NCBI GenBank assembly: GCA_964016885.1
Contig: OZ024746.1
Location: forward strand, 14,942,001-15,006,000
Direction: 5' to 3'
Length of the DNA: 64,000 bases
From: Eledone cirrhosa
Taxonomy: Eukaryota
The position numbers and the translations under genes are program-made. This document shows positions 1-23,322 of the stretch, piece after piece. Numbering within the stretch: the first letter of the stretch is position 1; the number at the start of each line of letters is the position of its first letter. Under the pieces are notes generated by a model. That model was not told the origin of the DNA. It did not search any database and saw nothing but the letters and a program-made list of their open reading frames with translations.

Positions 1-385
1 TGATGTGTGAAAGCTGGAGAGAAATCAAGTGTTTATCCTCCAATGGATGTGTGGTGTTAGTAATGAAATACAGATGAGCTGGGAGAAATAGTGAGCACAA
101 GGGGAGTCAGATGTAGTGTGCAAAAGAGAAGGGTGTGCTGGTATGGACATGTGAACCATATGCAGAATGATTGTTGAGTGAAGAAGTGCCAGGAAATGCT
201 AGTGGGAGGAAGTTGCAGTAGAGAAAGGTCGAGGATGACCTGGGAAGAAGTGGTGAGAGCTGATCTAAAAACACTGAACCCCAATGAGGATATGACTAAG
301 GAACCTTATGAGAAGAAGAAGGTTTTGCTGGAGAAGACCCGTCTAACCCAAGCAGGCAAGCATGGAAAAATGAATGTAAAATAAT
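1..385 (+). mobile_element. RTE-clade LINE 3' fragment (degenerate)
   Basis: Translates to WYGHV...VKKCQEM...SRMTWEEVVRADL...EKTR, the RTE ORF C-terminus, followed by the family 3' tail (caagcatggaaaa...aatgat). Confidence 0.8.
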
Positions 386-387
386 GA

Positions 388-600
388 TTGGCAGTAGAAT
401 TGTTAGAGCGTTGGACACCATGCTTTGCAGTATAGAGTTATGTCCCTTTATGTTCTGAGTTCAAATGTCGCTGAAGTTAGTTTTGCCTTTCATCCTGACA
501 GGGTTGATAAAATAAAGTACCAGTAATGAACTGGGGGAAGATTTAATCGACTTTAACTTCCCCCAAAATTGTTGATCTTGTGTCTAAATCAGAAACCATT
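388..600 (+). mobile_element. tRNA-headed SINE family A copy
   Basis: A-box-like TGGCAGTAG, B-box GAGTTCAAAT and core tttgcctttcatcc...gataaaataaagtaccag; more than 15 copies in the window. Confidence 0.8.
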
Positions 601-1617
601 ATCATCATCATCCACTTTTCCTTGACTTTCATGGGTTGACTGGAGCTTTATGTGGCAATATTTTACAGCCCGATGCTATTCTTCATACCAACCCTTTTAG
701 TTGCATCATATGACAAACACAGATAAACTGTGTAATTGTTCTAGAAACACTTTATTTCACAGTGCTCCAGTTCACACAGCTGGTAAATGATGAGTTGTAC
801 CTGTAATTGAAAGAGCCAGCCTTGTCACACACTGTCATGCTGAATCTCCCTGAGAACTACATTAAAAGTGTGTGTGTCTGTGGAATGTTCAGCCACTTGC
901 ATGTCAATTTAATGAGCAGACTGTTCCATTGATTGAACAGCAGGAACACTTGTCAAAACCAACAATAACAACATCAAAAAACATCTACATTAAGAACAAC
1001 ATCTTCATCAACACCAACAACAACAACACAATCTTATTTTTCTTTGATTGCAGCTGACAGACTGTTTAACAACAGTGAAACAAATTAACAAGACTGACTG
1101 TGTTAACCTCATCTCCAAATTTATGGTGACTATGGCTTTTTATTTATTTTGGTTTTTTAGTTTAATGTTTTAAATTAACTTTTAACCTCCTGTACCACAT
1201 GAAACCACATCAGCAAGACATTCTTGTACAAAACAGTAGTCAGATAAGTTCCCATTTTCAGCTACTTTGTTATAAACATAATATACACTCACTATTCATC
1301 ATTGTCATTGTTATTTAATGTCTTTTTGGTTGTTTTCTCAGTTCTTGTTCCTTTACAAATAAAGGATAACAATGAACACACCATGTGCGTGTTTGTATAT
1401 ATATATCTGTCTGTAACTCTTTAAAATCTATCCACACATACATACACAAAATATATTTCCCATTTCAATCATGTTGCTACAATAAGTTCACTTTCCAACC
1501 ACAAGGTCCTGTTTAGCTTCTATCCCTACATTTGTCCCTGTAAATAGTTAATTCTCCAAAGATACACCTCCATTTAATCCTGTGTGTTAGTTACTCTCTA
1601 ATCCTGTTTATTTTCAG

Positions 1618-1686
1618 TCGTTAGATGCCATCATTCAAAGTGACAAAAAAGATTTTACCTTTTGTCCTGGTTTAGGGCCACGAAAA
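1618..1686 (+). CDS. ERCC1: ERCC1 excision repair protein, internal exon (HhH2 domain)
   Basis: ttttcag|...|gtgagt, phase 0/0; encodes SLDAIIQSDKKDFTFCPGLGPRK, matching human ERCC1 [23 protein letters not shown]. Confidence 0.92.
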
Positions 1687-1738
1687 GTGAGTAGAAGTTT
1701 GTTTTCGCTCTATTTGTCTAACTATCTCTATCTCTCTA

Positions 1739-1790
<52 letters not shown>

Positions 1791-2002
1791 TATATCTGTC
1801 TACCTATTTTTTTTTCTCTCTCTCTGTTGGTCAGGAGTTGTAAGGGCACCATTGTAGCAGGACTTCAGCATTTTAGGTTTCAGGTTTCAATACAACTGTT
1901 TTCTTCCAAAGAAAGAGGAAGAGAGAGAGAGGGAGACAGAATTGATCCCCAGTCCTAGGCTGGTATTTTACTTATTGATTTTGAAAGTTAGGTGTCATCG
2001 TC

Positions 2003-2184
2003 TTAACCCTTTAGCATTTACATTATTTTATATATACTATTATATTTTCATGGTAAAGGCATTACCTCACATAATTATCTCACATACTATCGAATCTATG
2101 AGATTTTGAAAGTATTTATTTTGGGAACAATACTTTAACATCAGTTTGAGCGACCAGTTACAGCCAGTTTCACTAAAGGGTTAA
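2003..2184. mobile_element. piggyBac-like MITE (single-unit form)
   Basis: TTAA-CCCTTTAG...CTAAAGGG-TTAA termini; the interior matches one copy of the 72-bp satellite unit at 50670-52676. Confidence 0.75.
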
Positions 2185-2536
2185 ATAGAGCTGTGCCAGT
2201 AGTAAGATATATGTACTTCTGGCTCTCCAGTTAATATCTGACACTGTGTCAACTAGTCAGATATTAACAAGTGCAACAGCCACCCCACCTCCTCAGGTTT
2301 CAAGACAAGCAGGCCACCTTTTTGGTTTAGCGGAGGAAATCAGCAATATGGAGACCAAGAACATCAGAGGTCTTGGTGGAGACCAGTACAAAGAGGAAGT
2401 AGTCAGTCAGGCCCCGGTATTTAACTATCTTCCTCAAGATTAATAAAGAATTAAATTGTAAATGTCTCTTCTTCCTGAAACTTTCCACACTTATTTACCA
2501 AAAATGGCCATTAAAAAAATCTTTTTTTATTTTCAG

Positions 2537-2606
2537 GCTGAACAGCTGTACAATGTCTTTCATGAACCATTTTTAAAACGAAAGAAAATTTCATCTGACA
2601 ATGAAG
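2537..2606 (+). CDS. ERCC1: ERCC1 exon (AEQLYNVFHEPFLKRKKISSDNE)
   Basis: tttcag acceptor, in frame with the previous exon; matches human ARRLFDVLHEPFLK; donor aag|gtgtgt. Confidence 0.9.
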
Positions 2607-2657
2607 GTGTGTTCTCTCTCTCACTCCTCTCTCGCGCTTTCTCTCTCATTCTCACTT

Positions 2658-2688
<31 letters not shown>

Positions 2689-3106
2689 ACTTCCCTCTTG
2701 CTCTTTCTCTCTTACTCCCCTCTCTTCTCTCTCTCTCTCTCTCTTACTCCCCTCTCCTCTCTCTCTCATACACACTCGGCAGTGCTGTTATCGTTATTGT
2801 CATCATCACAGGACAATGGATTGGCAGAATCAGTAGAGCGTCAGACAAAATGCTTCTGGATATTTATGTTCTGAGTTCAAATACTGTCAAGTTCAACTTT
2901 GCCTTTTATCGTTCTGGATTCAATAAAGTAAAATACTAGTTATGTATTGCAATTGATACAATCAACTTTCCCCTTTCCTTCAAACTGTTGGCCTTGTGCC
3001 TAAATTAGTAGCCATCATCATCATCATAAGAAGTAATTTGTCTAAAATCCATTTATTCTGTGTCTGACCATTTTCTGTCTAACTGTTGCTGCCCTTTCTC
3101 TTTCAG

Positions 3107-3132
3107 TTGGTGAAACTAGCGTCCAGAAGTAA
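3107..3132 (+). CDS. ERCC1: ERCC1 probable terminal coding exon (VGETSVQK*)
   Basis: Polypyrimidine tract plus ttcag acceptor, phase 1 compatible with the donor at 2606; TAA at 3130-3132; AATAAA at 3190-3195. Confidence 0.65.
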
Positions 3133-3221
3133 AATTATTGCTGACAATTCTGATTGACTGATTCCAGAAGAAACACACATCAGTTGTGGAATAAAACAGT
3201 AAAGTTGTTATGTTTATTGTC

Positions 3222-3575
3222 AACAACAGACACCTTGTCTGTTGTAGATCTGAACAGACACCTTGTCTATTGTAGATCTGTTAACAACAGACACCTTGTC
3301 TCTTGTAGATCTGTTAACAACAGACACCTTGTCTATTGTAGATCTGTTAACAACAGACACCTTGTCTCTTGCAGATCTGTTAACAACAGACACCTTGTCT
3401 ATTGTAGATCTGTTAACAACAGACACCTTGTCTATTGTAGATCTGTTAACAACAGACACCTTGTCTATTGTAGATCTGTTAACAACAGACACCTTGTCTA
3501 TTGTAAATCTGTTAACAACAGACACCTTGTTTATTGTAGATCTGTTAACAACAGACATCTTGTCTCTTGCAGAAG
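3222..3575. repeat. 33-bp minisatellite, about 11 copies
   Basis: Unit aacaacagacaccttgtctattgtagatctgtt. Confidence 0.95.
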
Positions 3576-4444
3576 ATCTGTTGAGTTAACATCACATTTC
3601 TAATTGTCATCAGCATCAAGTGTTTTAAAACCAGCTAAAGAAGAGTTTATCATTGCCAGCTGCATTACAAACGAAGGTGCATGGCTTAGTGGTTAGGGTG
3701 TTGGATGGACAATCATAAGGTCATGGGTTAAATTCCTTGACTACATGATGCATTGTCTTCTTAAGCAAGATCCTTCATTTCATATTGATTTTCATGATAG
3801 GATTGGGGCTCTTAACTTTAAAACCTCCTATGAAATACAGCCTTGTAGGTCAGCTAAAGTTACATAGGTGTCAACTGTAATTACAAGAAGATAGAACTGG
3901 GAGCCCCTATCATGAAAACACCCAAGAACCCTTCTATGAGATACAACCTTTATGAGGCCAACTAAACTCACAGGTATGAACTGCAAATTTTATTTAATTT
4001 TCATTTTTCATACTTAGCATCTTAGGGTCCATTAGGGTCCATTTTGAGGCATTGTCTTATGACCAGACGGCCTCCCTGGCACCAATCCTTTTAGTTACCT
4101 CTTATGTTATGTAGGGTAACAATATCTATTCTAAACTGGATACACACAGCCCTCAACTGTTTTTAATAAGCAATATACAATATAAATGAACTTCAATTGG
4201 GAATTTCTCCTTGACAATAAATCCCTAAAGCTACTTGTAATTCTGTTTACCTATGCCTATAGATGTTATATATATATGTATATATAGATATCCATATATG
4301 TTCATTTTATGTAAGATGGTTTAAATTATGAGTTATTCCAGTCATTCTGATTAGCAGACTGATGCAATAAGCCAAAGCACGTGACATTATGTGTGTCATC
4401 CATCAAAAATGTATCTCATGGTTGCTGCAGGAATGGATATATGT

Positions 4445-4612
4445 GTGTGGGTGGTTGGCGTTAGGAAGAACATCCAGCTGTAGAAACCAAGCCCAAATCT
4501 GTTCTGAATGAGCAAGACATGGTCATCTGACCTTGATTTACCTCAATTAAGACAACCTATCTAACCCATGCTAGCATAGAAAATGGACGTTAAACGGTGA
4601 TGATGATGATGA
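4445..4612 (+). mobile_element. RTE-tail SINE/LINE 3'UTR fragment ending in (GAT)n
   Basis: ggttggcgttaggaagaacatccagctgtagaaacc...acccatgctagcatagaaaatggacgttaaacggtgatgatgat. Confidence 0.75.
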
Positions 4613-6327
4613 TATACACATACACACACATATATATCAACATCACCATCATTTAAAACCTGTCATCCCTGCTAGAAAGGGTTGGACTGATTGCCACAGA
4701 CCAAGTTATATAATTGGAGCTACTGACCCATGAGACGTGCTGGGAGTTCACATCTTGCTTACATAATGGATGTTAAGTGATGATGATGTTTGCAATTTTG
4801 ACCCAACTCAGTTACTTACACTCTTTAAATTCACTGCTTTGTGACTCAAGTTATTTGGTATGTGACCTATATCTGACAGTGGTATGTTGAAACTAAAACA
4901 ATTATGTTGTGGAAGACTAATTTTAGCCAGTTAAAAAAAAAAACCCATGCAGAAACTGTTATAATCACATTTTATATATTTTGTGAGGTGACAACTCACA
5001 AATCATTTCCATCATCATCATCATCATCATTTAATGTCCATTTATCTATGCTGGCATGGATTAGACAGGTCACTGATCAAATCAGTACTTAATAGAAACT
5101 ATTGACCTCTCAGACAGGCATGGATGCTTGCATCTTGTTTACATACATTCTAGCATTTGACAGAGTGTACTGGGTACATTTTATTATATCATCAGCACTA
5201 GAGACGTTGCTATGCCCTTATGGAAAATGAATGTAATAGTTTTTGTGTGTTTTTAGATGAAAAAAATATAATTCTTCTATGATGTAATTGCTTCATTTCT
5301 CTTATAGCAATAATACTCTTGAAAAGGAGCTTCATTATTTCAAACCTGTTCCCTTTAAATATTTAGCCTACACCTGTGTAAGAAACCAATATTATTGTCT
5401 CAATGACGATGATAACAATGACAACAATTATTACTTATGAGAACAACATAGTGTTTGATAGGCAGTAATCATTAGAGTATCAGACAAAGTGATTTGTGGC
5501 ATATAGTTACGTCTATTTACATTCTGAGTTCAAATCTCGCCAAAGTCAGCCTTGCCTTTCATCCTTCTGGGGCTCGATAGTACCCAGTTAAATACTGGAG
5601 TCAATATAATTGACTTTCCTCTCCCCACATATTGCTGGCCTTGTGCCAATGTTAGAAAGAATTATTTAGAACAAGAAAATAACAATGGTAGGGGAAAATG
5701 TTTTATATTTGTTCTCATCTTGTTGAATTTCTAAACTAATGTCTTCAGTTGTATTAATTAAGTATATTTTAATCTAAAAGATATTAACAAAGTATATTTT
5801 AATCTGTAAGATAATTGAACAAAAACTTCCCTCTCATTTATACACCTAATAAATACATTTCGAGCAACTGAAAAAACAAATATAATGGAAATAAATGGAC
5901 GATATATTTTTTTATAATTTTGTGTTCAGCTTTTTATTATATTTATTTCATAAATCAATTGATTAATTAATTAATGATTTTATTTGTCAGGCTTTCAGTG
6001 TCATCATCATCATCATCGTTTAACGTCCATTTTCCAGCTAGCATGAGTTAGCTTTATATTGCAGTTTCAGTGAATCTATGGGCAATATTAAATTTCATTC
6101 CATTAGACAATAAAATGAAATATTTGATTCAATTTTAACAAATTAAATAAAGAACTGAATAACAAAAAAAATATTCTTCACTCAGGCATCCAGCCATAGA
6201 GAGCTTGCTAAACAAAGGGTTGGGAGGACCCTTCCTTTAGTTGTATCAAGGATATGACAGCCTCCCTAGTGTTGGTGATCTACATGATAATTGCACTCAG
6301 TATACACTGTAAATTGATTTTCTCTGT

Positions 6328-6575
6328 AAAGCCAGAATGACAGCAGCCCATTTGGAGAGGGATCCCTGTGAGGTGGGATGGCTGTTGCAGCAGGTGTCTC
6401 AAGCCATTCTCTGTGGTAATGTCTTTGCCATTTTGTCCACGAGGCGCAGCTTAGACTGGGGTGTAGTATCTGTCCCTCTCTTTCGCCCTTTTTTTCGTTG
6501 CTTGATTCTTTTTTCTTTTCTTTTCATTTCCTTTGTTTTGTTCCCTGTAATAGTGTGTTTTGTTTTTGTATAAAC
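6328..6575 (+). mobile_element. CRE-like (RLE) non-LTR retrotransposon 3' fragment
   Basis: RDPCEVGWLLQQVSQAILCGNVFAIL resembles the CRE-clade C-terminal L.QRxSxAxQRGNA motif; followed by a T-rich 3'UTR. Confidence 0.55.
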
Positions 6576-7789
6576 AGCTTAGTTATGCAATAAACTGATC
6601 TAAGTGTGAAAAATTAAAAAAATATGAATTACAATATTTATAAAGCTTTGGAATAATTTCAAGAAAATAGACAATAAAGAAAGTTTGAATTTAAATATAT
6701 TATGCCAATCCCGCCAGTCACTGAAACTGTAAACTTGAAGGAGGCTGTCTTTGTTTTTTGTATTTTTGTATCAACAGGAAACATCTTTAAACACACTTAA
6801 TGTAATAAGCCTTAAACCTTATTTTACATTGCACTAATAATTTATACTTGAAATATATCTCTACCCCTATATAATCCTTTGTTCAGCATTTATAGCAGTA
6901 GTTACCAACCTTTTCACTTCTACTTACTGCTATCATTTTTCATGCTGGTATGGGTTGGACAGGACTTTTTGATGCAATGTTTGAACAACCAGATAACCTG
7001 CCTGGCACTTTTTAGTTGATTCTTACAACATGTAGAGATACAGTGTATCTATTGTAAAGCAGATACACACAGGGATATGGTGTACTTATTCTTAACTAGA
7101 TACACATAGGGAAACAGTGTACCTATTGTAAATCAGTTTTACAGAGGGAATCAGTACCTATTGTAAACCATATACACAGGGATACTGGGTACTTATTGTA
7201 AACCTGATACAGTGTACCTATTTTAAAGGTACATGCAAATTAATTTTTCAATGGACTCCTTACTACAATTACTCCCCCACCCAGATTGTTATACAGGGAG
7301 AATATTTATATTTAAAGAAGAATAGATACCGAATAGTGTGTGTAGATTATATTTTCAACCAAGTACTTAAAAATTACTTAGCTCCTGGAGTCCCAATTTG
7401 AGAACTTTTTTTTTATAAAGTAGCTATAGGAGAAATTACTGTTGTGTAAATCAAGTGGGGACTTTCTCTATAATTTTCAGAACAATAGGTTATGCAGTAA
7501 AATTACAAGTGGCCTACTCAAACATTTCGACAAACTAACTATTGTTTTCATGCAGATGGCATTCCCAAGAAATTAACCTTTTTTTTAATATATTAAATGT
7601 TAATGCCTACATATGTACAATATTGTTATAGACTTAGTAATTGCCTTATCACTACTTTGTCCATTACAGTTGAGTCTATGTTTGCTGAGGAGGTTGAATG
7701 AGACCTAAACATGTCTGGAGTTGTCTACAGTGATTAAAATAATATTAGTCATTGAACTCATCTTTTCCTCTTCTTTTTTTGCATCCACT

Positions 7790-8240
7790 TATTCCTGGGA
7801 GGATCATGGGAGCAGTGTACTCAGGTATGCCTTCCAGCAGGTCCTGCCAGAATCAACCATCTCCAATTGATCCTGCTGAACCCCCAAGCAAGACCAACTA
7901 AGCTCATCAATATTATCCAAACATCTTGCTCGAGATCTACCTTTGGGTCTCCTGCCAGTTTTTTGCTCATAAAATCTGTCCACGGATCCTTTCCTGAGAT
8001 ATTTTAACCGCATGTCCGTAATATCAGAGCTGTGGTCTTCCAATTTGGAGAAGTAGTAGCTCTATTGGGAGTGACACTCTGATCGTCAACTATACACTCT
8101 ATCAAGTAACATTACTCCAAAGACCCTTCAGGAACCCCATTTCGGCTGCTTGTATTTGCATTACTGCACCAGCTCCTGCTATTTTTGCACTTAATTTAGC
8201 CTCCTGCTTTCCATCACTCATGAACACGGTCCCAAAATAC
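7790..8240 (-). mobile_element. RTE (Rex3/Expander-like) LINE 3' fragment
   Basis: TGRRPKGRSRARCLDNIDELSWSCLGV...W...LLP resembles RPRGRPRTRW.D....LAWERLG; degenerate upstream sequence. Confidence 0.7.
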
Positions 8241-9399
8241 CAGCACTACCATGTTACAGAGTGTATTGGGTGCATTTTATAGTGACACCAGCATTAAATA
8301 CCTATATGTTAATCTGGAGAGGACAGAGAATGCTAATAGGTGTTTGAAGCCTTTATTGACCGAGAAATAGAATTAATGAGATGTAATTAATACAGTAAAT
8401 ATTTAATTGAAGCTGGTCTGTGTCAGATATATGTCCTGTTATATAGAAATTTGGAAGGGAAGGATGGGTTAGATAACACATTTAGCATGCTGGATTAGAG
8501 ATATTGATGTTGGTACAGTGAGAGGGGTGACGGTAAGAGTGTGTGTATATAGAGAAAAGGATATATAATGATGATTATATATATATATAACTTATACACA
8601 CACATATATATATATACACGTGTGTGTGTGCATCTATGCATATTCTATTATATATACACCTACATGCAGATAAAAACTAAGCTACTCCGAATAAAATAAG
8701 ATTTCATATATACATTCATATCTATATCTGTACAATATATATGTATATATATATATATATAAAACTCTGTATATATTCACAAGCAGTTAGACACTGAGTC
8801 AAGCAAAGCATAAAAGAAATAACTAGAGTGATAAATGGTAAACAGAAATTGGTCACATGTTAATTTTTCCAGCTTTGATTGGTCAGAGGATTAAAAAGAA
8901 GATAGCAGAAACATTGACATTAAAAGAAAATAGCAGTTTCCTGCGAAGGGAAGCTTGAACAATAGAACATATTGTTGTAATTGTGCAAACATCATGCTGT
9001 CACATGTTTACAAATATCTCTCAGATTGACTACAAAATCTGTAAGGTATGGGGGATGATAACTGGTCTATAGAGAAATGATTAAACACTGAACCTCCAAA
9101 ATGAAATATTAAGGTAAGATTTCTTTCTCAATTCATATAATTTTTTAAAGTAAATTAAAACAACAGAAAATAGATTGACCTTTTCATTACTATATTTCTG
9201 AAGAAATACACTGCCTAAAGTTTTCAAATATTTTTTTGAATAATTAAGAAATTTGGGGGATTTAGTAATGTAACTAACTTTCTCATTACTAATCCTTTCA
9301 TTATTATATTTCTGAAGAAATACACTGCAAGCCATTGAGCCCCACCAAGGTTTTTTTATACTTAGGAATTACTTGTATTTCCTCAGAATTAGTCCCTCT

Positions 9400-9570
9400 T
9401 ACAAATTCTCGTCTCTCCAAAATGCTGTGATGACTTAATATTCAGTGAGCTCGAGAGTCAGGTCAATGCCTGACTCTCCAGAGTCCCGCGACCAAGCTGT
9501 CTTGCCTAAACGGTTTGGAGGTCTCAGTCTGCGTAAATGCTCGTCTTTCTCCCTGCCTTGCTTTCTTACC
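9400..9570 (+). mobile_element. CRE-like retrotransposon internal fragment
   Basis: Translates DQAVLPKRFGGLSLRKCSSFSLPCFL, resembling QAxLPxRxGGLGIR...ALPAFL downstream of the RT in RLE elements. Confidence 0.55.
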
Positions 9571-11158
9571 AAGGTATCAGGTGCCTGGTTGTTTCAGTGC
9601 CTTAGCCTCACCATCACTTGTTGACCCTTGTGATGTGGTATGTGACCAATTGTTGCACTTGGTGGTGAATTGATGGTAGTTTTTGTTTGTGTTTCCCCCT
9701 ATTTTCTATTTCTCTCGCTCTAGTCATATTTTGGTGTGTTGTATTTGTGAGGTTCCTAGCAATAGTTAGTTGTATTTAGTATTTGTGTTTATATTTTCAT
9801 TTAAAAAGAATTATGAACAGTTTGTAATGTTATTTATATATATATTTAAAACAAATAAATTCCTCTTTTCAATTAATTTTTAAAATAAAAAAAGAAAGAG
9901 ATTTAATATTATAACTAAAATTCTCACTATCACATTGGTATTCAGGGTCAGTGAAGCATTTCTGAACTAGTGGGGTCAAATTTGGTCAATTTAGTTGTGA
10001 TTAGTTTAGCTGTTATTATCAACCAAGATATAAAAAACTTCAATATGTGATAAACATAACATGTACTTAAATTGTAGCGGATATACAAATAGATGTGTGT
10101 TTTGGTAGTTTAGGGAGAAATATGTTATTGGCGGGGTCACCTATTACAACACACAGGGACTCAGTGTACCTATTCTAAATCATATATACACAGGGATACA
10201 GTGTACCTATTGCCAAACAAAGGGTTGGGAGGACCCTTCAGCCATGTCAAGGACATGACAGCCTCCCTAGTATTTGGTGATGTTCAATAAATGCACCCAG
10301 TACATACTATAAAGTGGTTGGAAGGGCATACAGCCATAGAAAGCTTGCCAAACAAGGGGCTGGGAGGACCCTCTGTTGTGTCAAAAGTATGACAACCTCC
10401 CCTGTGCCCAACTGTACATAAGTGAGATGACAGATCCCTAGCTGCTCTGGGAGATTAGTGGCCACCACTTCAATACTGACTTGGTCTATGTAGATCTATC
10501 CAGCCTTTGCTAGCAGGGAAAGCAGATGTTAAAATGATGATGATGATGATGATGATGACGTGTATATATATATATATATATACACCCACACACACATATA
10601 TCAGTATGGCAGTAAACTAATACAATTAAATATAAGTATGTATACGTACATACATATATGTATACAGACGTACAGTAGTATGTATATATATATACATACA
10701 TGCACACATATATATATGTACGTATGGATTCACCGAACATTTATTATAATGCTCGGTGTGTTTGTAAACAAACATCCCGAATTAAGCCGTACAGTGTCTA
10801 GCAACCATCGTTGCTCATTTGTTCAACACTGACAAAGGAACGCTGTACTAGTTTCAAGCTTATTATAATAAATGTTCGGTGAATCCATACGTACATATAT
10901 ATATGTGTACATGTATGTATATATATATACATACTACTGTACGTCTGTATACATATATGTATGTACGTGTACATACTTATATTTAAGTAACAGCCGTACC
11001 AAGAGTGGGAAATGAAATTTTGTTTCATTTTTTCCGTTTATCATTTTCGCTACCCCGGGCAATTAACTCACTCGATATGCAAATTAGGCTGCTCAGCCGT
11101 TAATATGCATAAGGAAAGTATATACTTTCAGACGTTCAATCATCTGGCAGGAAGGTAT

Positions 11159-11201
11159 ACGTTGCTGACGATAGCTAATAAGGTTGAAACTAGTACAGCG
11201 T
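11159..11201 (+). ncRNA. Minimal type I hammerhead ribozyme motif
   Basis: ACGTTG-CTGACGA-tagctaataaggtt-GAAAC-ta-GTA-CAGCGT: 6-bp stem I, intact core, palindromic stem III (ACTAGT); stem II has one mismatch that is absent in the inverted copy. Confidence 0.8.
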
Positions 11202-11404
11202 TCCTTTGTCAGTGTTGAACAAAAGAGCAACGATGGTTGCTAGACACTGTACGGCTTAGTTCGGGATGTTTGTTTACAAACACACCGAGCATTATAATAA
11301 ATGTTCAGTGAATCCATACGTACATATATATATGTGTGCATGTATGTATATATATATATACATACTACTGTACGTCTGTATACATATATGTATGTACGTA
11401 TACA

Positions 11405-11630
11405 TAGCCCACACTGTAAAGTGGACGTGTAGGCGCCACGAAAAAGCACCCAGCACTCACTGTAAATGAGGTTGGTGTTAGGAAGGGCATCCAGCTGTAG
11501 AAATCAAGCCAAATCAGTTCCTGTATGAGCAAGGCATGGTCAGCCGACCAGACACTGCCCACACCAGAACAACCCGTCTAACCCATGCTAGCGTGGAAGA
11601 ACGGACGTAAAACGGTGATGATGATGATGA
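11405..11630 (+). mobile_element. RTE-tail SINE fragment nested in the PLE-like element
   Basis: gttaggaagggcatccagctgtagaaa...acccatgctagcgtggaagaacggacgtaaaacgg(tga)n; interrupts the 429-bp unit. Confidence 0.8.
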
Positions 11631-12349
11631 CATACTTATATTTAAGTAACAGCCGTACTAAGAGTGAGAAATGAAATTTCGTTTCATTTTTTCCGTTAAT
11701 ACAATTAAGTTATAAATATAATTAAGGATTTTTCATTGAGCAATGATCTTTCATTTAAAAAAAAGAGTTAAACCTGGTTCTATGATATGAAATTGGTTGT
11801 TTTAAATTGGTTTATATCTATTTAAAGACCTTCAATCATAATTTTATGTGAGAACTAAATCTCTCCAACTTTTTGTTAATTTTCAAAATTATTTGAATAC
11901 CATAATCAGTGTCATTCATTAGAAATATGGTAATGTTAATGAGATTGAAACAGAAACAAATACAAATATTTAAAACCCTTTTCATACCATCTTGGCTCTG
12001 GTCCTATGAAATAAAACCACTAATTTTAAAGAGTTCCTATTTAAATCTTCCAGCATAATTTTATATATGAACCACATGTTAAGTTGCTATCTTAGTAATT
12101 AAATGATTAACAATTTTGGAGAATCCCTCAAAAGTCTAGATTATTTGACAATGTGCTAATTATGCACCATTAATTAATATATGCTAGAAATAAGATATGT
12201 ATTCAGCAAAATAAACAATTTCAGCCATCATTTGCAATCAAGTGGTAGTATGTACTATGCTTTCTCTAAAGGTTTTAGATATCCATGCTGTCATGAGCAG
12301 ACACAGACATCTTTCTCACCCTCTTACCTCTTATCTAGCAGAACACCTA

Positions 12350-12700
12350 GGATGTGACAGTTTGAAGGAGAGAGAGCTGCACTAGCTGTGGGTTGGTACT
12401 TCCTTTATCTGCTAGCTGTGGCTTGGTACTCTCTTTATTGGTAAAAGTGGACTGGCAGCTTAAAGGAGAGAGAGCTGCACTAGCTGTGGGTTGGTACTTT
12501 ATCTGCAGAGTGGACTGAGAGCTTGGAGGAGAGAGGGCTGTACTAGCTGTGGGTTGGTACTTTATCTGCAAAGTGGACTGAGAGCTTGGAGGAGAGAGGG
12601 CTGTACTAGCTGTGGGTTGGTACTTTATCTGCAAAGTGGACCGACAACTTGAATGAGAGAGGGCTACACTAGTTGTGGGCTGGTACTTTCTTTATCTGTA
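12350..12700. repeat. About 60-bp tandem repeat, 5-6 copies
   Basis: Unit ...ggagagagggctgtactagctgtgggttggtactttatctgcaaagtggactgagagctt. Confidence 0.9.
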
Positions 12701-12895
12701 ATGTGGACCTTGGCAGGAATTGAACTCAGAATGCAGAGAAGTGAAACAATCTCTAACCACTCTCTCAAATTAACTGTTTTTTATGTAGTTATCTAATATA
12801 CTTCATATACTATATAGACTATAAATACTATCTATACTATAAATGCTTCATATATACTGTATATATCATATACTTCATTTGCTATATATACTATA

Positions 12896-13093
12896 CAAGG
12901 GTCAGCTGAAAAGTTCATAGGCTGACCAAGAAACTCTCATGGAATGACCAAATGAATTTTAATTTTCAACATAGTTCCTGGAAAGAAACAATGCAATTAT
13001 TAATAAGAAGAGTTGAAATTAATGCATGCAAAATTTCACAGCTCTAACATCACTCCTTCATAGTCAGCTAATGAACTTTTCAGCTGACTCTCG
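12896..13093. mobile_element. Tc1/mariner-type MITE
   Basis: TA-caagggtcagctgaaaagttcataggctgac ... gtcagctaatgaacttttcagctgactctcg-TA (about 30-bp imperfect TIRs, TA TSD). Confidence 0.8.
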
Positions 13094-13484
13094 TATATAC
13101 TATAAATACTTCATATATACTATATCATATACTATATGTGCTATATATAATATAAATACTATATATATCATATACTTTATCTACTATATATACTTTATAT
13201 ATATTTTATTTTTATAACTAAACTCACAAAGTAAAAATTAAAATCAAATGTTTTTAAATGAATATACAAGAATGTGGTTTTAAATATATTTAATTTACTT
13301 TTCCAGCAACATCACAGCGAATTAATATTGGAACGTACTAATTGGTCTACAAAATTCTCACTGGAATGCAAAAACTGGATTACCAAGAGTATTGGTATTG
13401 ATCTTGTGAGAGCTTATTTGTGTGGGCTGACTGACCACAAAGGTCTTACGACATTGTATTGGCCAGAATTAAAACATTCCAAAA

Positions 13485-13705
13485 CTACCTCTGGTTCTAT
13501 GAAGTAAACCCACCCCTGGTTCTATGTAACAAAACCACCCCTGGTTCTATGAAATAAACCTGTCTGTGGTTCTAAGAAACAATATCACTCCTGGTTCTAT
13601 GAAACAAAACCAACCCTGGTTCTATGAAATAAAACAAGCTCTGGTTCTATGAAATAAAACCAGCTCTGGTTCTATGAAACAAAACCACATCTGGTTCTAG
13701 GAAAC
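13485..13705. repeat. About 25-bp tandem repeat inside a MITE-like element
   Basis: Unit ctggttctatgaaataaaaccagct, about 9 copies; flanks resemble 11970-12170 and the reverse complement of 59297-59500. Confidence 0.8.
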
Positions 13706-14312
13706 AAACCCTTCCATTTTAAAGGGTTCCTATTTAAATTAAAATCTGCCAACATTATTTAAAATAAAAACCTTTTGTTAATTTAAGGTAAAAATGCCAT
13801 CTTAAGAATGAAATAATCAATGATTTTAGTAAATCCATCCAAATCCTTTCAAATACAGAGTATTTTGTAGGAAATATGGTAAGGAAGTGTTAATGGAATG
13901 TATTAAGACAGCTACAACAAAACTGTTGGGTTCATTGATATTTCTTTAATGAAATTATAGAACCAGAAATATTATACATGACCAGCAAAATCTTAACAGG
14001 AAATGACACAGAAATATACAAAAATGTCCTATCAGTTATGAAAACATCATTTGGATCAATTGGAATAAATTACTTTTAATGTTCTGTACCACATGACACC
14101 ACATTAGCAAGGCATTCTTGAAAAGTAGAAAACAGCTCTATGATTGCATCACATTAAAAATGAAAGTCTTTATTTTAATGCCGTAATCTTATAATAAAGA
14201 TACTATAAAACATTCGAATTAACAAACCTGTTTTTAGATATTTTCTGCTGAATAACTACAGAGTGTTAAGAGTTAAACAAGATAATCACAATAATAAATA
14301 TATTAATTGGTA

Positions 14313-16937
14313 ATGAAACGTTTTAAAAATAACATGTCTACTCTATCATTTGTATATTTTCTGATATTTTGGGGGTTTTGCTCAACAATAGAGTTTGAGT
14401 TTCATGTGTTTGAAGAAGAACCAATAAATACGTTTATTGGTTCTGTTAGCAACCCCAACACATCTAGTCAGTCTACCAGATATCTGATCATTGAATCAAA
14501 GAAAAATCTGTTCAGTATTAACAAAGATTCTGGAGAGATCTATACTGCAAAGCATATCGATCGGGAAGATTTATGTGCATCTGAACCTGTTTGTATCTTT
14601 GTTGTGAAAGTTCGAATAGATTCAAAAACATTTGAAATAGTCAAAGTGAATATTTGGATTGATGACATCAATGATAATGCACCAGTATTTGAAGAAAACG
14701 AAGTTTCATTAAAGATTACAGAAAATAATCCACTTGAAACGTTATATCCCATCGTAGATGCTTGGGATAGTGATTCAGGAATTAATAATTCTATGATATG
14801 TTATACACTGTTAAAAAATGACAATAATAGATTTAGTTTGATGCAAAATAATAAACAAGTGGTTAGGTTGAAAATTAACAAGGCTTTGGATTATGAAGAA
14901 CAAAAGTTTTACCAATTGACCATTGTAGCAAAAGACCAAGGTATTCCACAGAGGAGTGGAAGTATGTTAATAAATATTACTGTGTTAGATGAAAATGATA
15001 ATACACCAAAATTTGAAAAAGTTGTCTACAATGAAACAATTTTTGAAAACGTACCCATATTTTCTACAATTCTTAGGTTGCGGGCAACTGACAAAGATTC
15101 CGATATAAATGGTAAAGTGAGATATAAATTGAGTCATAAAACATCTGCTAAGATTAAAGAAATCTTTGAAGTGAAAGAATCTTCTGGAGAAATTATTTTG
15201 AAAGGTAGTCTTAGTGACAGATATCAATATTCCTTCACTGTAATAGGTTATGACGAAGGTTTGAGGAGTCGGTCATCTTCTGCCTCTGTTTTTATTAATA
15301 TTGTTGATGTTAATGACAACCCCCCTCATATTGTTTTTCATCCTTCCTTAGTCAATATATCAGAATTACAACAGCCAGGATTTCATGTTGCTTTTGTTTC
15401 TGTTAGTGATAAAGATAAAGGTGACAATGGTAAAGTGTACTGTTCAATAGCTGATGTCGATCAATATTTCAAACTTAAACGTGATTCGAACACCTATCAA
15501 ATACTCATTCGTAATAAATTGGATTTTGAGAATATAACCACTCACAATATCACCATTAAATGTGAAGATAATGGCACACCTAAACTAAACAGTGAAAAAA
15601 CTATTATAGTAAATGTTATTGATTATAACGATAACCCCCCAATTTTTAACAGTGAAATAAAAATTGTTAATATCACAGAAAATAATCCAGCGCCTAAAGT
15701 TATAGCTGAAATGACAGCGACAGACAAAGATAATGGAGTTAACTCTGAAATATATTATTATCTTGAACCTCACATCACATCAGATTTTACTATAAATAAT
15801 AGAACTGCTATGATAACAACAAACAAAATATTTGATAGAGAAAATATTTCAGTGATTCAGTTTAAAGTTTTTGCAGTGGACTCTGGAGTTCCATCCCTGA
15901 CTGGCACTGCAACAGTACGGTTACAAATACTTGATATTAACGATAATATACCTCAGTTTCAAAAACAATATTATAAGTTCCAAGTATTGGAGGCTCAGTC
16001 TGCGGAGACCATTATTGGAACTGTAAAAGCAAAAGACTTAGATACTCAGGAAAATGGAACTGTTTCGTATATAATAGAAAAAAAAAATATAGCTTCACAA
16101 GTTTTTATTGTAACTGATGGTACTTTGAAGACTAAAGCTATATTAAACCGCACAGAAGCTCAGAAATATAATTTTGTTGTTGTAGCAATTGATCATGGAA
16201 AAACACCATTGAATTCATCATGTAATGTCATAGTAGTTGTTGAGGATACCAATAACAACAGTCCTTATATCATATACCCAAGTGATGCAAACAACAGTAT
16301 TTCGGTCAGTTATGAAATGACCCCAGCTGACCAACCTATTTCACAAGTCATAGCTTATGATAATGATGAAGGAGAAAATGCTAGGTTATCTTATTTCTTT
16401 AAAAATACTCCTGAAATAAGAAATCTCTTCAGAATTAATGAGACATCTGGTGAAATAATGTTGGTAAAAGACAGTAAAGTCGAGAATCTGAAACAAACAT
16501 ATAAACTGTTGATTTCTGTTAAAGACCATGGCAAACCCCACCATAATACTCACGCAGTTTTATTTGTCTATATGACGGATGGTAAGAAACTGTTGATGAG
16601 TAGGGCTAAGGAAACTGGCATTATTTTAGGAGCTTGTGCAGCATTTGTATTACTGTTTGTTGCAATAACTGCATACATAGTATCAAGAACAGAAAAACAG
16701 AAAAGACGTTATTCAGCCAAGAAATATGAAGATGCTTCACTTAGAAGGAAACGCTACAATTTTCCTAAAAAGAATGAATTTAATAATAATGGAGGCAAAT
16801 CATCTTCTGAAGTAAATGAATCTCAGTTTTCTCAAGAAAATGGAAACAGTTTTGAAACAGTCGATATTCCACCTACAGAGATACCCACACCAAGAATACG
16901 GACTGCAACTACAAAAGTCAAAGAACCATTATTTCAG
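14313..16937 (+). CDS. Protocadherin, large coding exon: signal peptide, 7 cadherin repeats, TM helix, start of cytoplasmic tail
   Basis: Six DxNDN-type linkers (DINDNAP, DENDNTP, DVNDNPP, DYNDNPP, DINDNIP, DTNNNSP), DRE/DYE and AxDxG motifs, EC1 DREDLC-x5-C, TM GIILGACAAFVLLFVAITAYIV; ATG at 14313 or 14334; donor cag|gtgaga at 16937. Confidence 0.97.
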
Positions 16938-17111
16938 GTGAGATTTTTATGGAAATATAGTTTATGAGTCAGTTTTTTCCCTATAATGTATATATATATA
17001 TATAAACATTTTAGCTCCGACATATCTGTATACATACAGGTATGTGACTTTTGTATATCAAAAGATATGCGAAATTCACACACACACGCATATATATATA
17101 CATACCCCCCC

Positions 17112-18090: not shown

Positions 18091-20216
18091 TCATCATCAT
18101 CATCATCATCATCATCATCGTTTAACGTCCGTGTTCCATGCTTGCATGGGTTTGGACGGGAGTTTTCCTACTTGAGGCAAGAGTGGTTGTCTTGCTCGCA
18201 TAGGACTGTCTGGCGGGTTTTCTACAGTTGGATGCCCTTCCTAACACCAACCACATTTACAGTGTGGGGCTGGGAGGTTTTTACCGTGTTGCCTACACGG
18301 CCACATTACAGCGTGGACTGTCTGGCAGGTTTTCTACAGTTGGATGCCCTTCCTAACACCAACCACATTTACAGTGTGGGGCTGGGAGGTTTTTACCGTG
18401 TTGCCTACACAGCCACATTACAGCGTGGACTGTCTGGCAGGTTTTCTACAGCTGGATGCCCTTCCTAACACCAACCACATTTACAGTGTGGGACTGGGAC
18501 GTTTTTACCGTGTTGCCTACACGGTCACATTTACAGCGTGGACTGTGTGTGTTTTTTTTTCGTGACACCTACACGGTCTCATTTGTTTCGGCCTGGATTT
18601 TGTGGCACCAACATAACTTTACATTGAAAGGGGCGGTGTGGATGGGGTGGGGGTGGTGGGGCGGGGGTGTATTTTGTTAGAGATGCCTACTGACTGTAGT
18701 AGGTTTTACTTTGTATTTAGGTAACGCGGGTCTTCTCTGTTACTGAGTACCACCAAAGGTCTCGGTCCAGTGACATTGTCTTGGAGAGGTGTAAGTGTGT
18801 GAGGTCGGAATTTATCAGCTCGTCCCAGGATTTTCTGGGTCTGCCTACTCCGTGGCTACCATCTATCTTTATTGCCCTGCACTTTGTTATACAGCTGTCG
18901 TCTTTCATGCACATCACGTGACCATACCAACATAGCCTTCACTCGAGTAAACATCTGATCCCTCTTATTTCTAATTTTTTCCTTAGTTCGTTTATGCTTT
19001 GCCGTTCGCGTATATTACTATTACACATCCAGCGGAGCATGCAAGCTTCGTTCCTCTCTACTCTGCGTATATCCTCTGCACACAATGCCCAGGTCTCACT
19101 GCCATGCAACATTGCTGTTCGTATGCAGGCATCATACAACCTGCCTTTCACTTTTAGGGAGAACCCTTTAGCGGCTAATAGTGGTATAAGCTCTCTGAAC
19201 TTTTCCATCCAGTTCTGACTCTAGCTACTGTACTTTCGGAGCACCCTCCCCCACTGCTGATTTTGTCACCCAGGTAACGGAAGCTGTCCACTATTTCTAT
19301 AGAACCCTCTGCGCAGTTGAAAGAGCTAGTATTTTGTGGGCACTTGCTGCTACTTATTGCACCAGAGCACCGGCCACATGTAAAATCTGTGTTCTTAGTT
19401 AGCTTACCTGTGATCCCACTACATCTTTTATGCACCCATACTTTGCATTTGGGACATAAAATGGAGTTTCTACCTACGCCTTTCCTACACACTGAGCATG
19501 GCCATTTCCCGGAAGGGACCGGCGCCTTATTTTCTTTCCTACAAACTAGAACTTTAGTCTTAGCCATGTTAATTTTAAGGCCTTTTGATTCTAGGCCGTG
19601 CTTCCATGTTTGGAATTTCTTCTCTAGCTCGGCCATTGATTCAGCTATGAGCGTTAGGTCATCTGCGTATAGGAGTTCCCATGGGCAGCCGGTCTTGAAC
19701 TCCTCTGTTATAGCCTGAAGAGCAATAATGAATAGTAGGGGGCTAAGAACAGAGCCCTGATGGACACCAACTTTTACGCTAAACTCTTCACTATATTCGT
19801 TGTTAATTCTAACCTTGCTCACTGTTTCTTTATATATGGCTTGTATAGCTCTCACAAGCCATTCGTCAACACCTAGTTTTCTAAGAGCCCACCACATAAT
19901 GGAACGGGGGACTCTGTCGAAGGCTTTCTCCAAGTCGACGAAGGCTACGTATAGGGGTTTACTTTTAGCTAGGTACTTCTCCTGTAGTTGTCGTACAATG
20001 AAAAGAGCGTCTGTGGTACTTTTGCCCGACACAAACCCGAACTGCATTTCATCTAGATCGATTCTCTCTCTGATTAGTTGCACTATTACTTTTTCCGTGA
20101 CCTTCATGACCTGGTCGATTAATTTAATCCCTCTATAGTTACTCCTATCTAGGGCGTCTCCTTTACCCTTGTAACAGTTAATGATGATGCTGCTACGCCA
20201 GTCCTTCGGAACAACA
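18091..20216 (-). mobile_element. 5'-truncated RTE-clade LINE (RT plus PHD-like finger, long 3'UTR, (GAT)n tail)
   Basis: VPKDW...NYRGIKL, QFGF, FVDLEKAFDRV, GVHQGSVLSPLLF, YADD, FRYLG, HGSETW, WYGHV, GRPRKSW; frameshift near 19200 and stop near 18939; splits the 36-bp array. Confidence 0.93.
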
Positions 20217-22828
20217 TATAGTTGGTAATTGTGAGTGTTTGGTAGGTGGTTATATAGTTGGTCATTGTGAGTGTTTGGTAGGTGGTTATATAGTTGGTCA
20301 TTGTGAGTGTTTGGTAGGTGGTTATATAGTTGGTCATTGTGAGTGTTTGGTAGGTGGTTATATAGTTGGTTATTGTGAGTGTTTGGTAGGTGGTTATATA
20401 GTTGGTTATTGTGAGTGTTTGGTAGGTGGTTATATAGTTGGTTATTGTGAGTGTTTGGTAGGTGGTTATATAGTTGGTCATTGTGAGTGTTTGGTAGGTG
20501 GTTATATAGTTGGTCATTATCAGTGTTTGGTAGGTGGTTATATAGTTGGTCATTGTGAGTGTTTGGTAGGTGGTTATATAGTTGGTAATTGTCAGTGTTT
20601 GGTAGGTGGTTATATAGTTGGTCATTGTGAGTGTTTGGTAGGTGGTTATATAGTTGGTTATTGTCAGTGTTTGGTAAGTGGTTATATAGTTGGTCATTGT
20701 CAGTGTTTGGTAGGTGGTTATATAGTTGGTTATTGTCAGTGTTTGGTAGGTGGTTATATAGTTGGTCATTGTGAGTGTTTGGTAGGTGGTTATATAGTTG
20801 GTTATTGTGAGTGTTTGGTAGGTGGTTATATAGTTGGTTATTGTCAGTGTTTGGTAGGTGGTTATATAGTTGGTTATTGTGAGTGTTTGGTAGGTGGTTA
20901 TATAGTTGGTCATTGTGAGTGTTTGGTAGGTGGTTATATAGTTGGTTATTGTGAGTGTTTAGTAGGTGGTTATATAGTTGGTCATTGTCAGTGTTTGGTA
21001 GGTGGTTATATAGTTGGTCATTGTGAGTGTTTGGTAGGTGGTTATATAGTTGGTCATTGTGAGTGTTTGGTAGGTGGTTATATAGTTGGTTATTATCAGT
21101 GTTTGGTAGGTGGTTATATAGTTGGTCATTGTGAGTGTTTGGTAGGTGGTTATATAGTTGGTCATTGTCAGTGTTTGGTAGGTGGTTATATAGTTGGTTA
21201 TTGTGAGTGTTTGGTAGGTGGTTATATAGTTGGTTATTGTGAGTGTTTGGTAGGTGGTTATATAGTTGGTCATTGTGAGTGTTTGGTAGGTGGTTATATA
21301 GTTGGTTATTGTCAGTGTTTGGTAGGTGGTTATATAGTTGGTTATTGTGAGTGTTTGGTAGGTGGTTATATAGTTGGTCATTGTGAGTGTTTGGTAGGTG
21401 GTTATATAGTTGGTTATTGTCAGTGTTTGGTAGGTGGTTATATAGTTGGTTATTGTGAGTGTTTGGTAGGTGGTTATATAGTTGGTCATTGTGAGTGTTT
21501 GGTAGGTGGTTATATAGTTGGTTATTGTCAGTGTTTAGTAGGTGGTTATATAGTTGGTTATTGTCAGTGTTTGGTAGGTGGTTATATAGTTGGTCATTGT
21601 GAGTGTTTGGTAGGTGGTTATATAGTTGGTTATTGTCAGTGTTTGGTAGGTGGTTATATAGTTGGTTATTGTCAGTGTTTGGTAGGTGGTTATATAGTTG
21701 GTCATTGTGAGTGTTTGGTAGGTGGTTATATAGTTGGTTATTGTCAGTGTTTGGTAGGTGGTTATATAGTTGGTTATTGTCAGTGTTTGGTAGGTGGTTA
21801 TATAGTTGGTCATTGTGAGTGTTTGGTAGGTGGTTATATAGTTGGTTATTGTCAGTGTTTGGTAGGTGGTTATATAGTTGGTTATTGTCAGTGTTTGGTA
21901 GGTGGTTATATAGTTGGTTATTGTCAGTGTTTGGTAGGTGGTTATATAGTTGGTTATTGTCAGTGTTTGGTAGGTGGTTATATAGTTGGTTATTGTCAGT
22001 GTTTGGTAGGTGGTTATATAGTTGGTTATTGTCAGTGTTTGGTAGGTGGTTATATAGTTGGTTATTGTGAGTGTTTGGTAGGTGATTATATAGTTGGTTA
22101 TTGTCAGTGTTTGGTAGGTGGTTATATAGTTGGTTATTGTCAGTGTTTGGTAGGTGGTTATATAGTTGGTTATTGTCAGTGTTTGGTAGGTGGTTATATA
22201 GTTGGTTATTGTGAGTGTTTGGTAGGTGGTTATATAGTTGGTTATTGTGAGTGTTTGGTAGGTGGTTATATAGTTGGTTATTGTCAGTGTTTGGTAGGTG
22301 GTTATATAGTTGGTTATTGTCAGTGTTTGGTAGGTGGTTATATAGTTGGTTATTGTGAGTGTTTGGTAGGTGGTTATATAGTTGGTCATTGTGAGTGTTT
22401 GGTAGGTGGTTATATAGTTGGTTATTGTGAGTGTTTGGTAGGTGGTTATATAGTTGGTTATTGTCAGTGTTTGGTAGGTGGTTATATAGTTGGTTATTGT
22501 CAGTGTTTGGTAGGTGGTTATATAGTTGGTTATTGTGAGTGTTTGGTAGGTGGTTATATAGTTGGTTATTGTCAGTGTTTGGTAGGTGGTTATATAGTTG
22601 GTTATTGTCAGTGTTTGGTAGGTGGTTATATAGTTGGTTATTGTCAGTGTTTGGTAGGTGGTTATATAGTTGGTTATTGTCAGTGTTTGGTAGGTGGTTA
22701 TATAGTTGGTTATTGTCAGTGTTTGGTAGGTGGTTATATAGTTGGTTATTGTCAGTGTTTGGTAGGTGGTTATATAGTTGGTCATTGTGAGTGTTTGGTA
22801 GGTGGTTATATAGTTGGTCATTGTGACT
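20217..22828. repeat. 36-bp minisatellite, about 72 copies, in the protocadherin intron
   Basis: Highly homogeneous unit tatagttggt(c/t)attgt(g/c)agtgtttggtaggtggtta; no spacers. Confidence 0.98.
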
Positions 22829-22894
22829 GAAGTGTTAGTGAAATGTTGTCATGTGTTGTTGAAGTTGTTAAAAACCGACTAGGACCATTATTAT

Positions 22895-23322
22895 AATCGC
22901 CCTTCCATATGCAAGAGCTGAGGCATACATCTAGTATGCACCACCTTCCCACCCCATTGACCTCCCTCGCTGTAATCACCCCACCCTAATTCCCCATGTA
23001 TCTCCCCCACCCAAGCCCCCAATCCACACCATAAAGTGGTCATCCTGAGCCACAACAAAAGCGCCCAATCCACACTGTAAAGTGGTCATGTTGGCAACAC
23101 TACAAAAAGCACCCAGTCCACACTGTAAAGTGCTCGTGTAGGTGTCACAACAAAAAGCACCCAGTAGACTCTGTAAATGTGGTTAGCGTTAGGAAGGGCA
23201 TCCAGCTGTAGAAACCAAGCCAAAATCAGTTTTGTGTGAGTAAAAAAACGGTCAAACCTGGATCTCTCATCCCACCCATGCTAGTGTGGAATAAGATGTT
23301 AAACGATGATGATGATGATGAT
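22895..23322 (+). mobile_element. RTE long-3'UTR fragment with (GAT)n tail
   Basis: Same module as 18091-18716 (opposite strand) and 40435-40850. Confidence 0.75.

Follow-up and report, generated by a model that had tools for sequence, protein, structure and literature searches.

The stretch of DNA analysed here, referred to as the window, comprises 64,000 nucleotides (nt) from the cephalopod Eledone cirrhosa (contig OZ024746.1, positions 14,942,001 to 15,006,000, forward strand) and carries at 10618-11708 a short composite element with a hammerhead ribozyme motif, which lies about 8 kb past peptides resembling ERCC1 and 2.6 kb before a protocadherin open reading frame (ORF), on the same strand. 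We propose, with a probability of roughly 75%, that the element is a decayed member of a many-copy family of non-coding, 429-bp hammerhead repeats of the retrozyme type, and that a Penelope-like retrotransposon (PLE) likely carried out its insertion in trans.

The element is bracketed by a 12-bp target site duplication (TSD), TAATACAATTAA, at 10618-10629 and 11697-11708 (plus strand); these are the sole two plus-strand copies of this sequence within the 64 kb, and the chance of such a match is about 5e-7 per placement. The left TSD leads into an inverted, 5'-truncated arm of 240 nt (10626-10865, minus strand), whose start also equals the last 4 nt (TTAA) of the TSD. The arm runs from loop II of the hammerhead to a point designated terminus 1 (equivalent to 10982-10986) and is the reverse complement of unit positions 11176-11290 plus 10862-10986, with five substitutions. 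It meets the direct run at an inversion junction (10860-10871), in which a 4-nt overlap, ATTA (10862-10865), sits within a 12-bp palindrome. The direct run begins with a 5'-truncated partial unit of 177 nt (10862-11038, plus strand) resembling the pseudo-long terminal repeat (pLTR) of PLEs and continues with one complete natural unit (11039-11697, plus strand), both stopping at a second point, terminus 2. The complete unit is split into 11039-11406 and 11630-11697 by a 223-bp insertion with a (GAT)n tail (11407-11629, plus strand), flanked by ACATA at 11402-11406 and 11630-11634, which resembles a short interspersed element (SINE) and is read as a later SINE insertion. Minus this insert, the direct run measures 429 + 179 = 608 nt, or 1.42 units.

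The direct copies possess a tail of 52-55 nt (10987-11038, plus strand, with a predicted hairpin at about 11006-11035) that is missing from the inverted arm; the arm thus ends 52-55 nt before the direct 3' end, the range stemming from the 4-nt match between the end of the TSD and the element. The reconstructed empty site has a like context at both nicks, ATTAA^GTTA on the top strand and ATTA^GTTT on the bottom strand. Arm, partial unit and full unit diverge pairwise by about 2-3%, and the 177-nt overlap between the direct repeats holds six substitutions and one 2-nt indel. Both the direct run and the arm cross the predicted hammerhead cut site, the arm by 20 nt. A preliminary description of this DNA, made from the sequence alone, had placed the 12-bp repeat around a 240-bp inverted arm and about 1.4 copies of a 429-bp unit, with coordinates that we confirm; it had left out the nested 223-bp insert and a mismatch in stem II of the hammerhead. 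A simple fold-back at the junction palindrome was rejected as the source of the arm, the first 115 nt of which match the preceding part of the unit and not adjacent sequence; self-priming on an antisense template has been proposed for junction palindromes by Arkhipova et al. (PMC3846280). Private changes seemed over-represented in 10862-11290 (7 of 292 against 2 of 417, p 0.037); this result depends on a post hoc grouping, weakens when units are cut at terminus 2 and was left unused. Complementarity between the arm and the direct copies stands at 97-98%, and co-transcription with the protocadherin gene would yield a long double-stranded RNA, in a cephalopod a likely substrate for A-to-I editing.

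The family to which the unit belongs was assessed in four sequencing runs (X1, X21, X6 and X4) aligned to 376 bp of it (10940-11315). Part of 10976-11315 is contained in 20 runs, among them X1, X4, X6 and the same-sample runs X2 and X3, with no RNA run listed; three of the 20 hold at least half of its words, these three under a single organism label. On the 376 bp there are 10,825 X1 contigs and 74,990 of 12,467,656 X21 reads, which excludes the single-copy unit that the preliminary description had named as a way for its reading to fail. A rough estimate, from a summed depth of about 1.5 million taken over 31 and then over 10-30 for the depth of single-copy sequence, points to thousands of copies or more, with the proviso that alignment depth is not copy number. 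The junction from the tail into the next unit (11038/11039) is spanned by a diverged X1 contig (10965-11093, depth 36.7, 20 differences), 34 X1 contigs show letters resembling the tail ahead of 11054, and the depth of X21 stays level over the junction (2,516 at 11021 and 2,496 at 11043). At the other seam, X21 reads return to 10940 from 11306 or 11315 (509 and 498 reads). Many copies therefore stand head-to-tail, with the junctions 11038/11039 and 11315-to-10940 both crossed; the first recurs in diverged copies and is thus not unique to this locus, and the unit is closed. A further 34 X1 contigs exit at 11041 into (TA)n, a point equivalent to the 3' end of the present copy, so that, other than had been expected beforehand, copies are not freely circularly permuted and share a common 3' end.

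At position 11008, where the direct repeats of this locus differ, each of the two letters is frequent among family members (A in 3,522 of 4,922 X21 reads). The two largest loose ends of the X21 alignment (31,316 and 10,371 reads; among the 20 of 607 listed) read as diverged subfamilies of the unit, and piles and loose ends at 11016-11019, 11082-11085, 11108 and 10942 were set aside as likely library cut sites, being AATT or CATG-like. X6 and X4 contain 16 and 11 contigs over the hammerhead at depths of up to about 60, for which trace DNA and low-copy relatives are indistinguishable; for this reason no claim of horizontal transfer is made. Over 10940-10985 their depth is about 10 times that at the hammerhead and falls to zero over the tail, which suggests a commoner, related repeat sharing the TA-rich part only.

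The 429-bp unit has a GC content of 0.366 and, as stated in the preliminary description, is non-coding. The longest stop-free frame of a unit dimer is 85 amino acids (aa), the longest from a methionine 82 aa, and a Pfam scan of the frames over the element gave zero matches and no ORF for a reverse transcriptase (RT) or GIY-YIG protein. Indels of 1 nt (1,126 of 2,119 reads), 2 nt (4,253 of 8,393) and 8 nt (2,892 of 16,070) are common in the family, which argues against coding and breaks a 68-codon frame that passes through the hammerhead. The unit is predicted to be strongly folded: a long TA-rich hairpin (10874-10972, plus strand) contributes to a z score of -7.34 against shuffled sequences, and -3.67 (0 of 100 shuffles) remains without it. 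Terminus 1 lies just 3' of this hairpin, and terminus 2 lies at the foot of the predicted tail hairpin. An 8-bp long-range helix is predicted between 10992-10999 and 11249-11256 (3' arm, plus strand); the loose-end letters of a diverged subfamily differ in both arms, making them candidate compensatory changes, with phase not shown. The 102 sub-threshold Rfam matches in the element (E<=10) are mostly miRNA models on the TA-rich hairpin; they reflect low complexity, include no hammerhead and were discarded.

The unit contains one type I hammerhead motif (11144-11212, plus strand) with an extended, bulged stem I, a 4-bp stem II over U.U and a palindromic 2-bp stem III. The core comprises CUGACGA (11165-11171), GAAA (11186-11189), the palindromic ACUAGU (11189-11194) and a GUA ending at 11195, which places the predicted cut at 11195/11196; stem I has 5 bp and, beyond an internal loop, further segments of 4 and 6 bp. 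Among the three matches of a custom descriptor in the window this motif is the one compact match, and it bears out the single hammerhead, palindromic stem III and GUA site of the preliminary description, the cut itself being predicted. In the present copy stem II carries a G.G mismatch (11174/11183). The inverted arm retains the pairing C, and 11183 is C in 18,670 of 19,053 X21 reads and in 121 X1 contigs, which identifies C as the stem II pairing base of the family.

Within 11144-11212 there are ten variant rows among the 40 of 105 listed, none in the catalytic core; they fall in N7, loop II, the internal loop and the bulge, and further include the repair of stem II, a stem change on one side only and two double changes. 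The double changes keep pairing (U.G to G.U at 11162/11198, A-U to U.G at 11152/11206) and, to judge from matching depths, occur jointly in a single contig of X6 and a single contig of X4. By these variants, the family hammerhead varies mostly in ways compatible with its predicted structure. A common 11169 C>T variant puts an ATG in the core (11165-11172), the frame of which closes after 16 codons. Hammerheads with a small palindromic stem III cut poorly alone and better as dimers (PMC4209133; PMC7229834), and the transcripts of the family are predicted to be cut by the hammerhead, probably as a dimer formed through the palindromic stem III. The present locus has a single, damaged hammerhead, which allows neither dimerisation in cis nor release of a monomer or circle, so any circle would come from other loci. 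After the stem II mutation and the SINE-like insertion this copy is likely inert.

We propose the following route to the locus. A tandem source locus would be transcribed, and a PLE protein with RT and GIY-YIG domains would bind the structured 3' part of the unit and nick the two strands of an AT-rich target 12 nt apart, at ATTA(A)^GTT. The bottom-strand end would prime internally at terminus 2 and copy 608 nt, while the top-strand end would prime at terminus 1, 52-55 nt upstream, and copy 240 nt; joining of the two cDNAs at the 4-nt ATTA overlap would then generate the inversion and the TSD. The stem II mutation and the SINE-like insert would have hit this copy later. We infer the two-strand nicking, the internal priming at two termini and the ATTA joining from precedents in anole and rotifer PLEs. 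In anole, the PLE protein nicks both target strands at 5'-ATT-3' and extends them, and its RT starts at two adjacent internal sites that delimit a tail (PMC11167929). The rotifer element Pen2a combines two direct pLTRs with an inverted one next to them, a one-sided tail of 31 bp and a TSD of 9 bp; pLTRs are reported to suffice for the mobilisation in trans of sequence unrelated to them (PMC3846280). This anatomy, together with a bias for (TA)n, has been described as general in endonuclease-bearing PLEs, including hammerhead-less and non-autonomous ones (PMC8557442; PMC8969392), and 30 recently active Penelope families are reported from Octopus vulgaris (PMC13282606).

Several observations weigh against this proposal. 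Rfam leaves the hammerhead unscored, both at the gathering threshold (0 matches in 64 kb) and at E<=10 over the element, and the minimum-energy fold of this allele mispairs stems II and III; the fold of 11140-11215 is no better than shuffles (z -0.86). In X1, 11198-T (784k of 1.57M depth) is far commoner than 11162-G (160k of 1.20M), and 11206-G (325k) far commoner than 11152-T (0.3k), so covariation is imperfect, which would mean many mismatched copies or the loss of short contigs. With 40 of 105 variants and 20 of 607 loose ends listed, core variants or a branch leading into an ORF could be hidden among the others. No aligned piece holds two hammerheads, the pieces being too short for two, and this locus has one. 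Outside this locus, terminus 1 recurs only in three single contigs of other organism labels, and there over a TA-rich stretch of about 40 nt. Because the X21 library is of the reduced-representation type and was cut at AATT, 22 nt short of terminus 2, terminal reads are hidden in it and ratios of terminal to internal ends cannot be taken. No autonomous PLE with these termini was found among the window frames scanned, and none of the 21 ORFs near related metagenome hammerheads gave a Pfam match, hence no RT. The tail of 52-55 nt exceeds the 30-40 bp in print. Finally, twin priming by a long interspersed element (LINE) also yields inversion, TSD and microhomology.

At family level the repeat fits metazoan non-LTR retrozymes on every sequence feature tested: a short, low-GC, non-coding unit (within the size range of about 150-450 bp of the class), a type I hammerhead, many copies, a head-to-tail junction, a self-paired fold and a TSD (12 bp here) longer than the 4 bp of LTR retrozymes. 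A U.U at the base of stem II is shared with axolotl HHR_Amex2, and a palindromic stem III with these retrozymes. The present case differs in its cephalopod host, in its explicit PLE footprint (inverted arm, tail, common 3' end) and in having one damaged hammerhead. The retrozyme-like character assigned by the preliminary description is thereby upheld for a multi-copy, closed, non-coding 429-bp unit with a conserved hammerhead. With endonuclease-bearing PLEs (Penelope/Poseidon and Neptune, such as Pen2a_Av and the anole element PAc) the element shares a partial tandem, an adjacent inverted 5'-truncated copy, an apparently one-sided tail, a TSD in the range of 8-12 bp, an AT-rich or (TA)n target, a hammerhead in the repeated part and termini beside predicted stem-loops. 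It differs from them in lacking an RT/GIY-YIG ORF or an ORF start at the hammerhead, in its longer tail, and in a long bulged stem I like that of canonical motifs, whereas PLE hammerheads have a minimal form. It is not an autonomous PLE and works like a non-autonomous one.

Newt satellite 2 is likewise a hammerhead-bearing tandem unit, in which an octamer reportedly has a role. The unit here has a weak candidate for such an internal promoter element, the octamer ATGCAAAT (11077-11084, plus strand), 80 nt before the hammerhead, noted post hoc with 0.026 expected per unit. The region upstream of the hammerhead (11077-11136) combines ATGCAAAT with a second palindrome, ATGCAT, at 11105 and a TATA-like palindrome near 11129-11136, a possible internal promoter; within it, a minor X1 subfamily (14 contigs) has a sequence resembling a 5' splice site, AAGGTAAGT. 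Newt satellite 2 carries an internal promoter of the snRNA type (PMC2220036). The Chlamys MRC1 elements share the status of a non-coding PLE passenger, the pLTRs and the head-to-tail insertions, but belong to green algae and to a group of which most members are described as lacking canonical hammerheads, and their partner is known by 3' similarity (PMC8557442). Mussel retrozymes, with units of 350-390 bp, and Rtz_353 of axolotl are examples of the animal class (PMC7229834; 10.64898/2026.07.22.740005).

Both cDNAs cross the predicted cut site, which excludes a cut linear monomer as template short of a template jump. The preliminary description had read more-than-unit-length copying as a sign of circular or multimeric RNA; a template longer than the cut monomer stands, and the anatomy by itself does not indicate circular RNA, since PLE anatomy arises without circles and even without hammerheads. 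As for the template, we slightly favour an uncut linear multimer over a re-ligated circle. A mixed multimer is hinted at by 11008, a site that differs between the repeats and has two letters frequent family-wide, although this is one site and weak. A PLE insertion from a hammerhead-cut, re-ligated 429-nt circle around which the RT rolled is a special case of the proposed insertion that we consider possible but doubtful. It would account for the crossing of the cut site by both cDNAs; in coral, mussel and axolotl, circles are the abundant form of retrozymes (PMC7229834), an RT that initiates internally could use a circle although it offers no free 3' end, and the circular unit has a compact predicted fold (z -8.1 against 60 shuffles, a value inflated by the TA-rich hairpin). 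However, a single circle would give identical repeats, whereas the 177-nt overlap contains the changes described above, 11008 among them; these only hint at another template, given that about 1% of post-insertion decay per copy fits too. The anole PLE mainly used uncut RNA as substrate, and its hammerhead mutants inserted normally (PMC11167929), while non-autonomous Chlamys elements insert head-to-tail, most Chlamys elements having no hammerheads (PMC8557442). A broader form, in which the cephalopod family makes abundant ribozyme-closed 429-nt circles that are copied by a Penelope protein from the two stem-loop sites after two-strand nicking, is held with equal reserve; if true, it would make the locus a direct genomic record of the movement of an animal retrozyme, naming the priming sites and the nick motif.

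The element may instead be debris of an autonomous PLE, that is, two or three independently 5'-truncated pLTR cDNAs with 429 bp as an accidental truncation length, which we regard as unlikely. In keeping with it, 5'-truncated PLEs with one terminal repeat and hammerhead pairs on opposite strands are described as common (PMC4209133; 10.64898/2026.07.22.740005), and three metagenome loci (L030, L048 and L068) hold two such hammerheads in inverted arrangement. The recurrence of the tail-to-next-unit junction in diverged copies disfavours it, and with it the refuting case named in the preliminary description, a mere pLTR of an autonomous element; nor does any loose end, among the 20 of 607 listed, lead from 11039-11150 into common foreign sequence. 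Anole and rotifer pLTRs carry an ORF start (PMC11167929; PMC3846280), which in the anole PLE is located at hammerhead stem II (PMC11167929), whereas the frame from the hammerhead here is the 16-codon one mentioned above.

Least likely is a hammerhead satellite moved by twin priming of a LINE (RTE, CR1, L1-Tx1 or Dong) or rearranged at the DNA level: inversion, a 12-bp TSD and 4-nt microhomologies are products of twin priming too, the window contains, at 19175-22834, an RT fragment that has a PHD-like finger and lacks a GIY-YIG match, and LINEs are abundant in octopus (PMC13282606), but the 3' end here has no poly(A) or simple-repeat tail, the arm duplicates a near-3' part of the direct run instead of continuing its 5' part, the two ends lie at most 55 nt apart as in PLE tails, and type I hammerheads with a small palindromic stem III have been reported for PLEs (PMC4209133).

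Mobilisation of animal retrozymes by PLEs has so far been argued from co-occurrence, shared hammerheads and pLTR similarity; a 2026 preprint by Li, Clavereau and Pollet does so for the retrozymes of vertebrates, on the grounds of co-occurrence and similarity of pLTRs (10.64898/2026.07.22.740005). Here the insertion footprint itself, with two termini, a symmetric nick motif, an inversion and a TSD, is seen on an ORF-free unit, which turns the identity of the enzyme and the choice between circle and multimer as template into specific tests. The same preprint reports cleavage in only one of nine tested dimers, which advises caution in predicting activity for the present family. The kind of element is already known, and the finding extends the retrozyme family to cephalopods. 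Among molluscs, retrozymes have been described in mussel (Cervera and de la Pena 2020, PMC7229834). We found no report of a cephalopod retrozyme, and subscription journals, Repbase/Dfam and supplements (those of the two retrozyme papers may include related units from molluscs) could hold one; the main text of a paper on O. vulgaris repeats contains neither 'ribozyme' nor 'retrozyme' (PMC13282606).

Metagenomes contained no match to the exact hammerhead pattern and at least 113 matches, in at least 110 loci, to a relaxed one; at least 24 of these, in at least 23 loci, passed a filter of stem I >=4 and stem II >=3. Among the matches listed, there was neither a copy of the unit nor a partner element, and only locus L017 resembles the unit, over a 31-nt core. 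There (753-783), 29 of 31 nt match the hammerhead core within an apparent 1,075-bp tandem unit followed by TAACCC repeats, which recalls telomere-associated PLEs. The opposite-strand hammerhead pairs of L030, L048 and L068 have palindromic stems III and lie in inverted repeats of 73-78 nt, a head-to-head layout as in the present element.

The protocadherin ORF downstream was correctly named in the preliminary description and is confirmed at 14307-16967 (plus strand) by Pfam and by its relatives, the best named of which are in Octopus bimaculoides and O. vulgaris (61-62% identity) and in Argonauta (54%), which points to an octopod host. A candidate splice acceptor, TTTTTAG, at 14230-14239, about 75 nt before its ATG, is compatible with an upstream non-coding exon. 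The preliminary description had put the element in a probable 5' intron of this gene, a placement that we regard as putative. A 63-bp minisatellite of about five copies (12356-12713) lies between the element and this ORF. Upstream, peptides at about 1087, 1663 and 2561 (plus strand) are presumably the C-terminal part of an ERCC1-like protein, judging by motif matches only; Pfam did not name ERCC1 in 85 frames of at least 48 aa (1-14400) or in 150 of 207 shorter frames (1-10600). On the minus strand, 19175-22834 is an open frame of 1,219 aa in which a long tandem repeat is followed by an RT domain (RVT_1, 2e-31) and the PHD-like finger, Pfam giving no GIY-YIG match in it. By its sequence this is a LINE fragment, probably of RTE type.

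The SINE-like insert has 28 other blastn pieces in the window, 10 of them at E<1e-17. With ARAGORN detecting no tRNA gene anywhere in the window, the name SINE is based on the length, tail, TSD and copy number of the insert. The (GAT)n-tailed family is abundant, for example at 4453, 18104-18541, 23070-23320, 40443, 45112-45481 and 63582, and it also occurs as tandem partial copies at 18104-18541 and 54808-55277.

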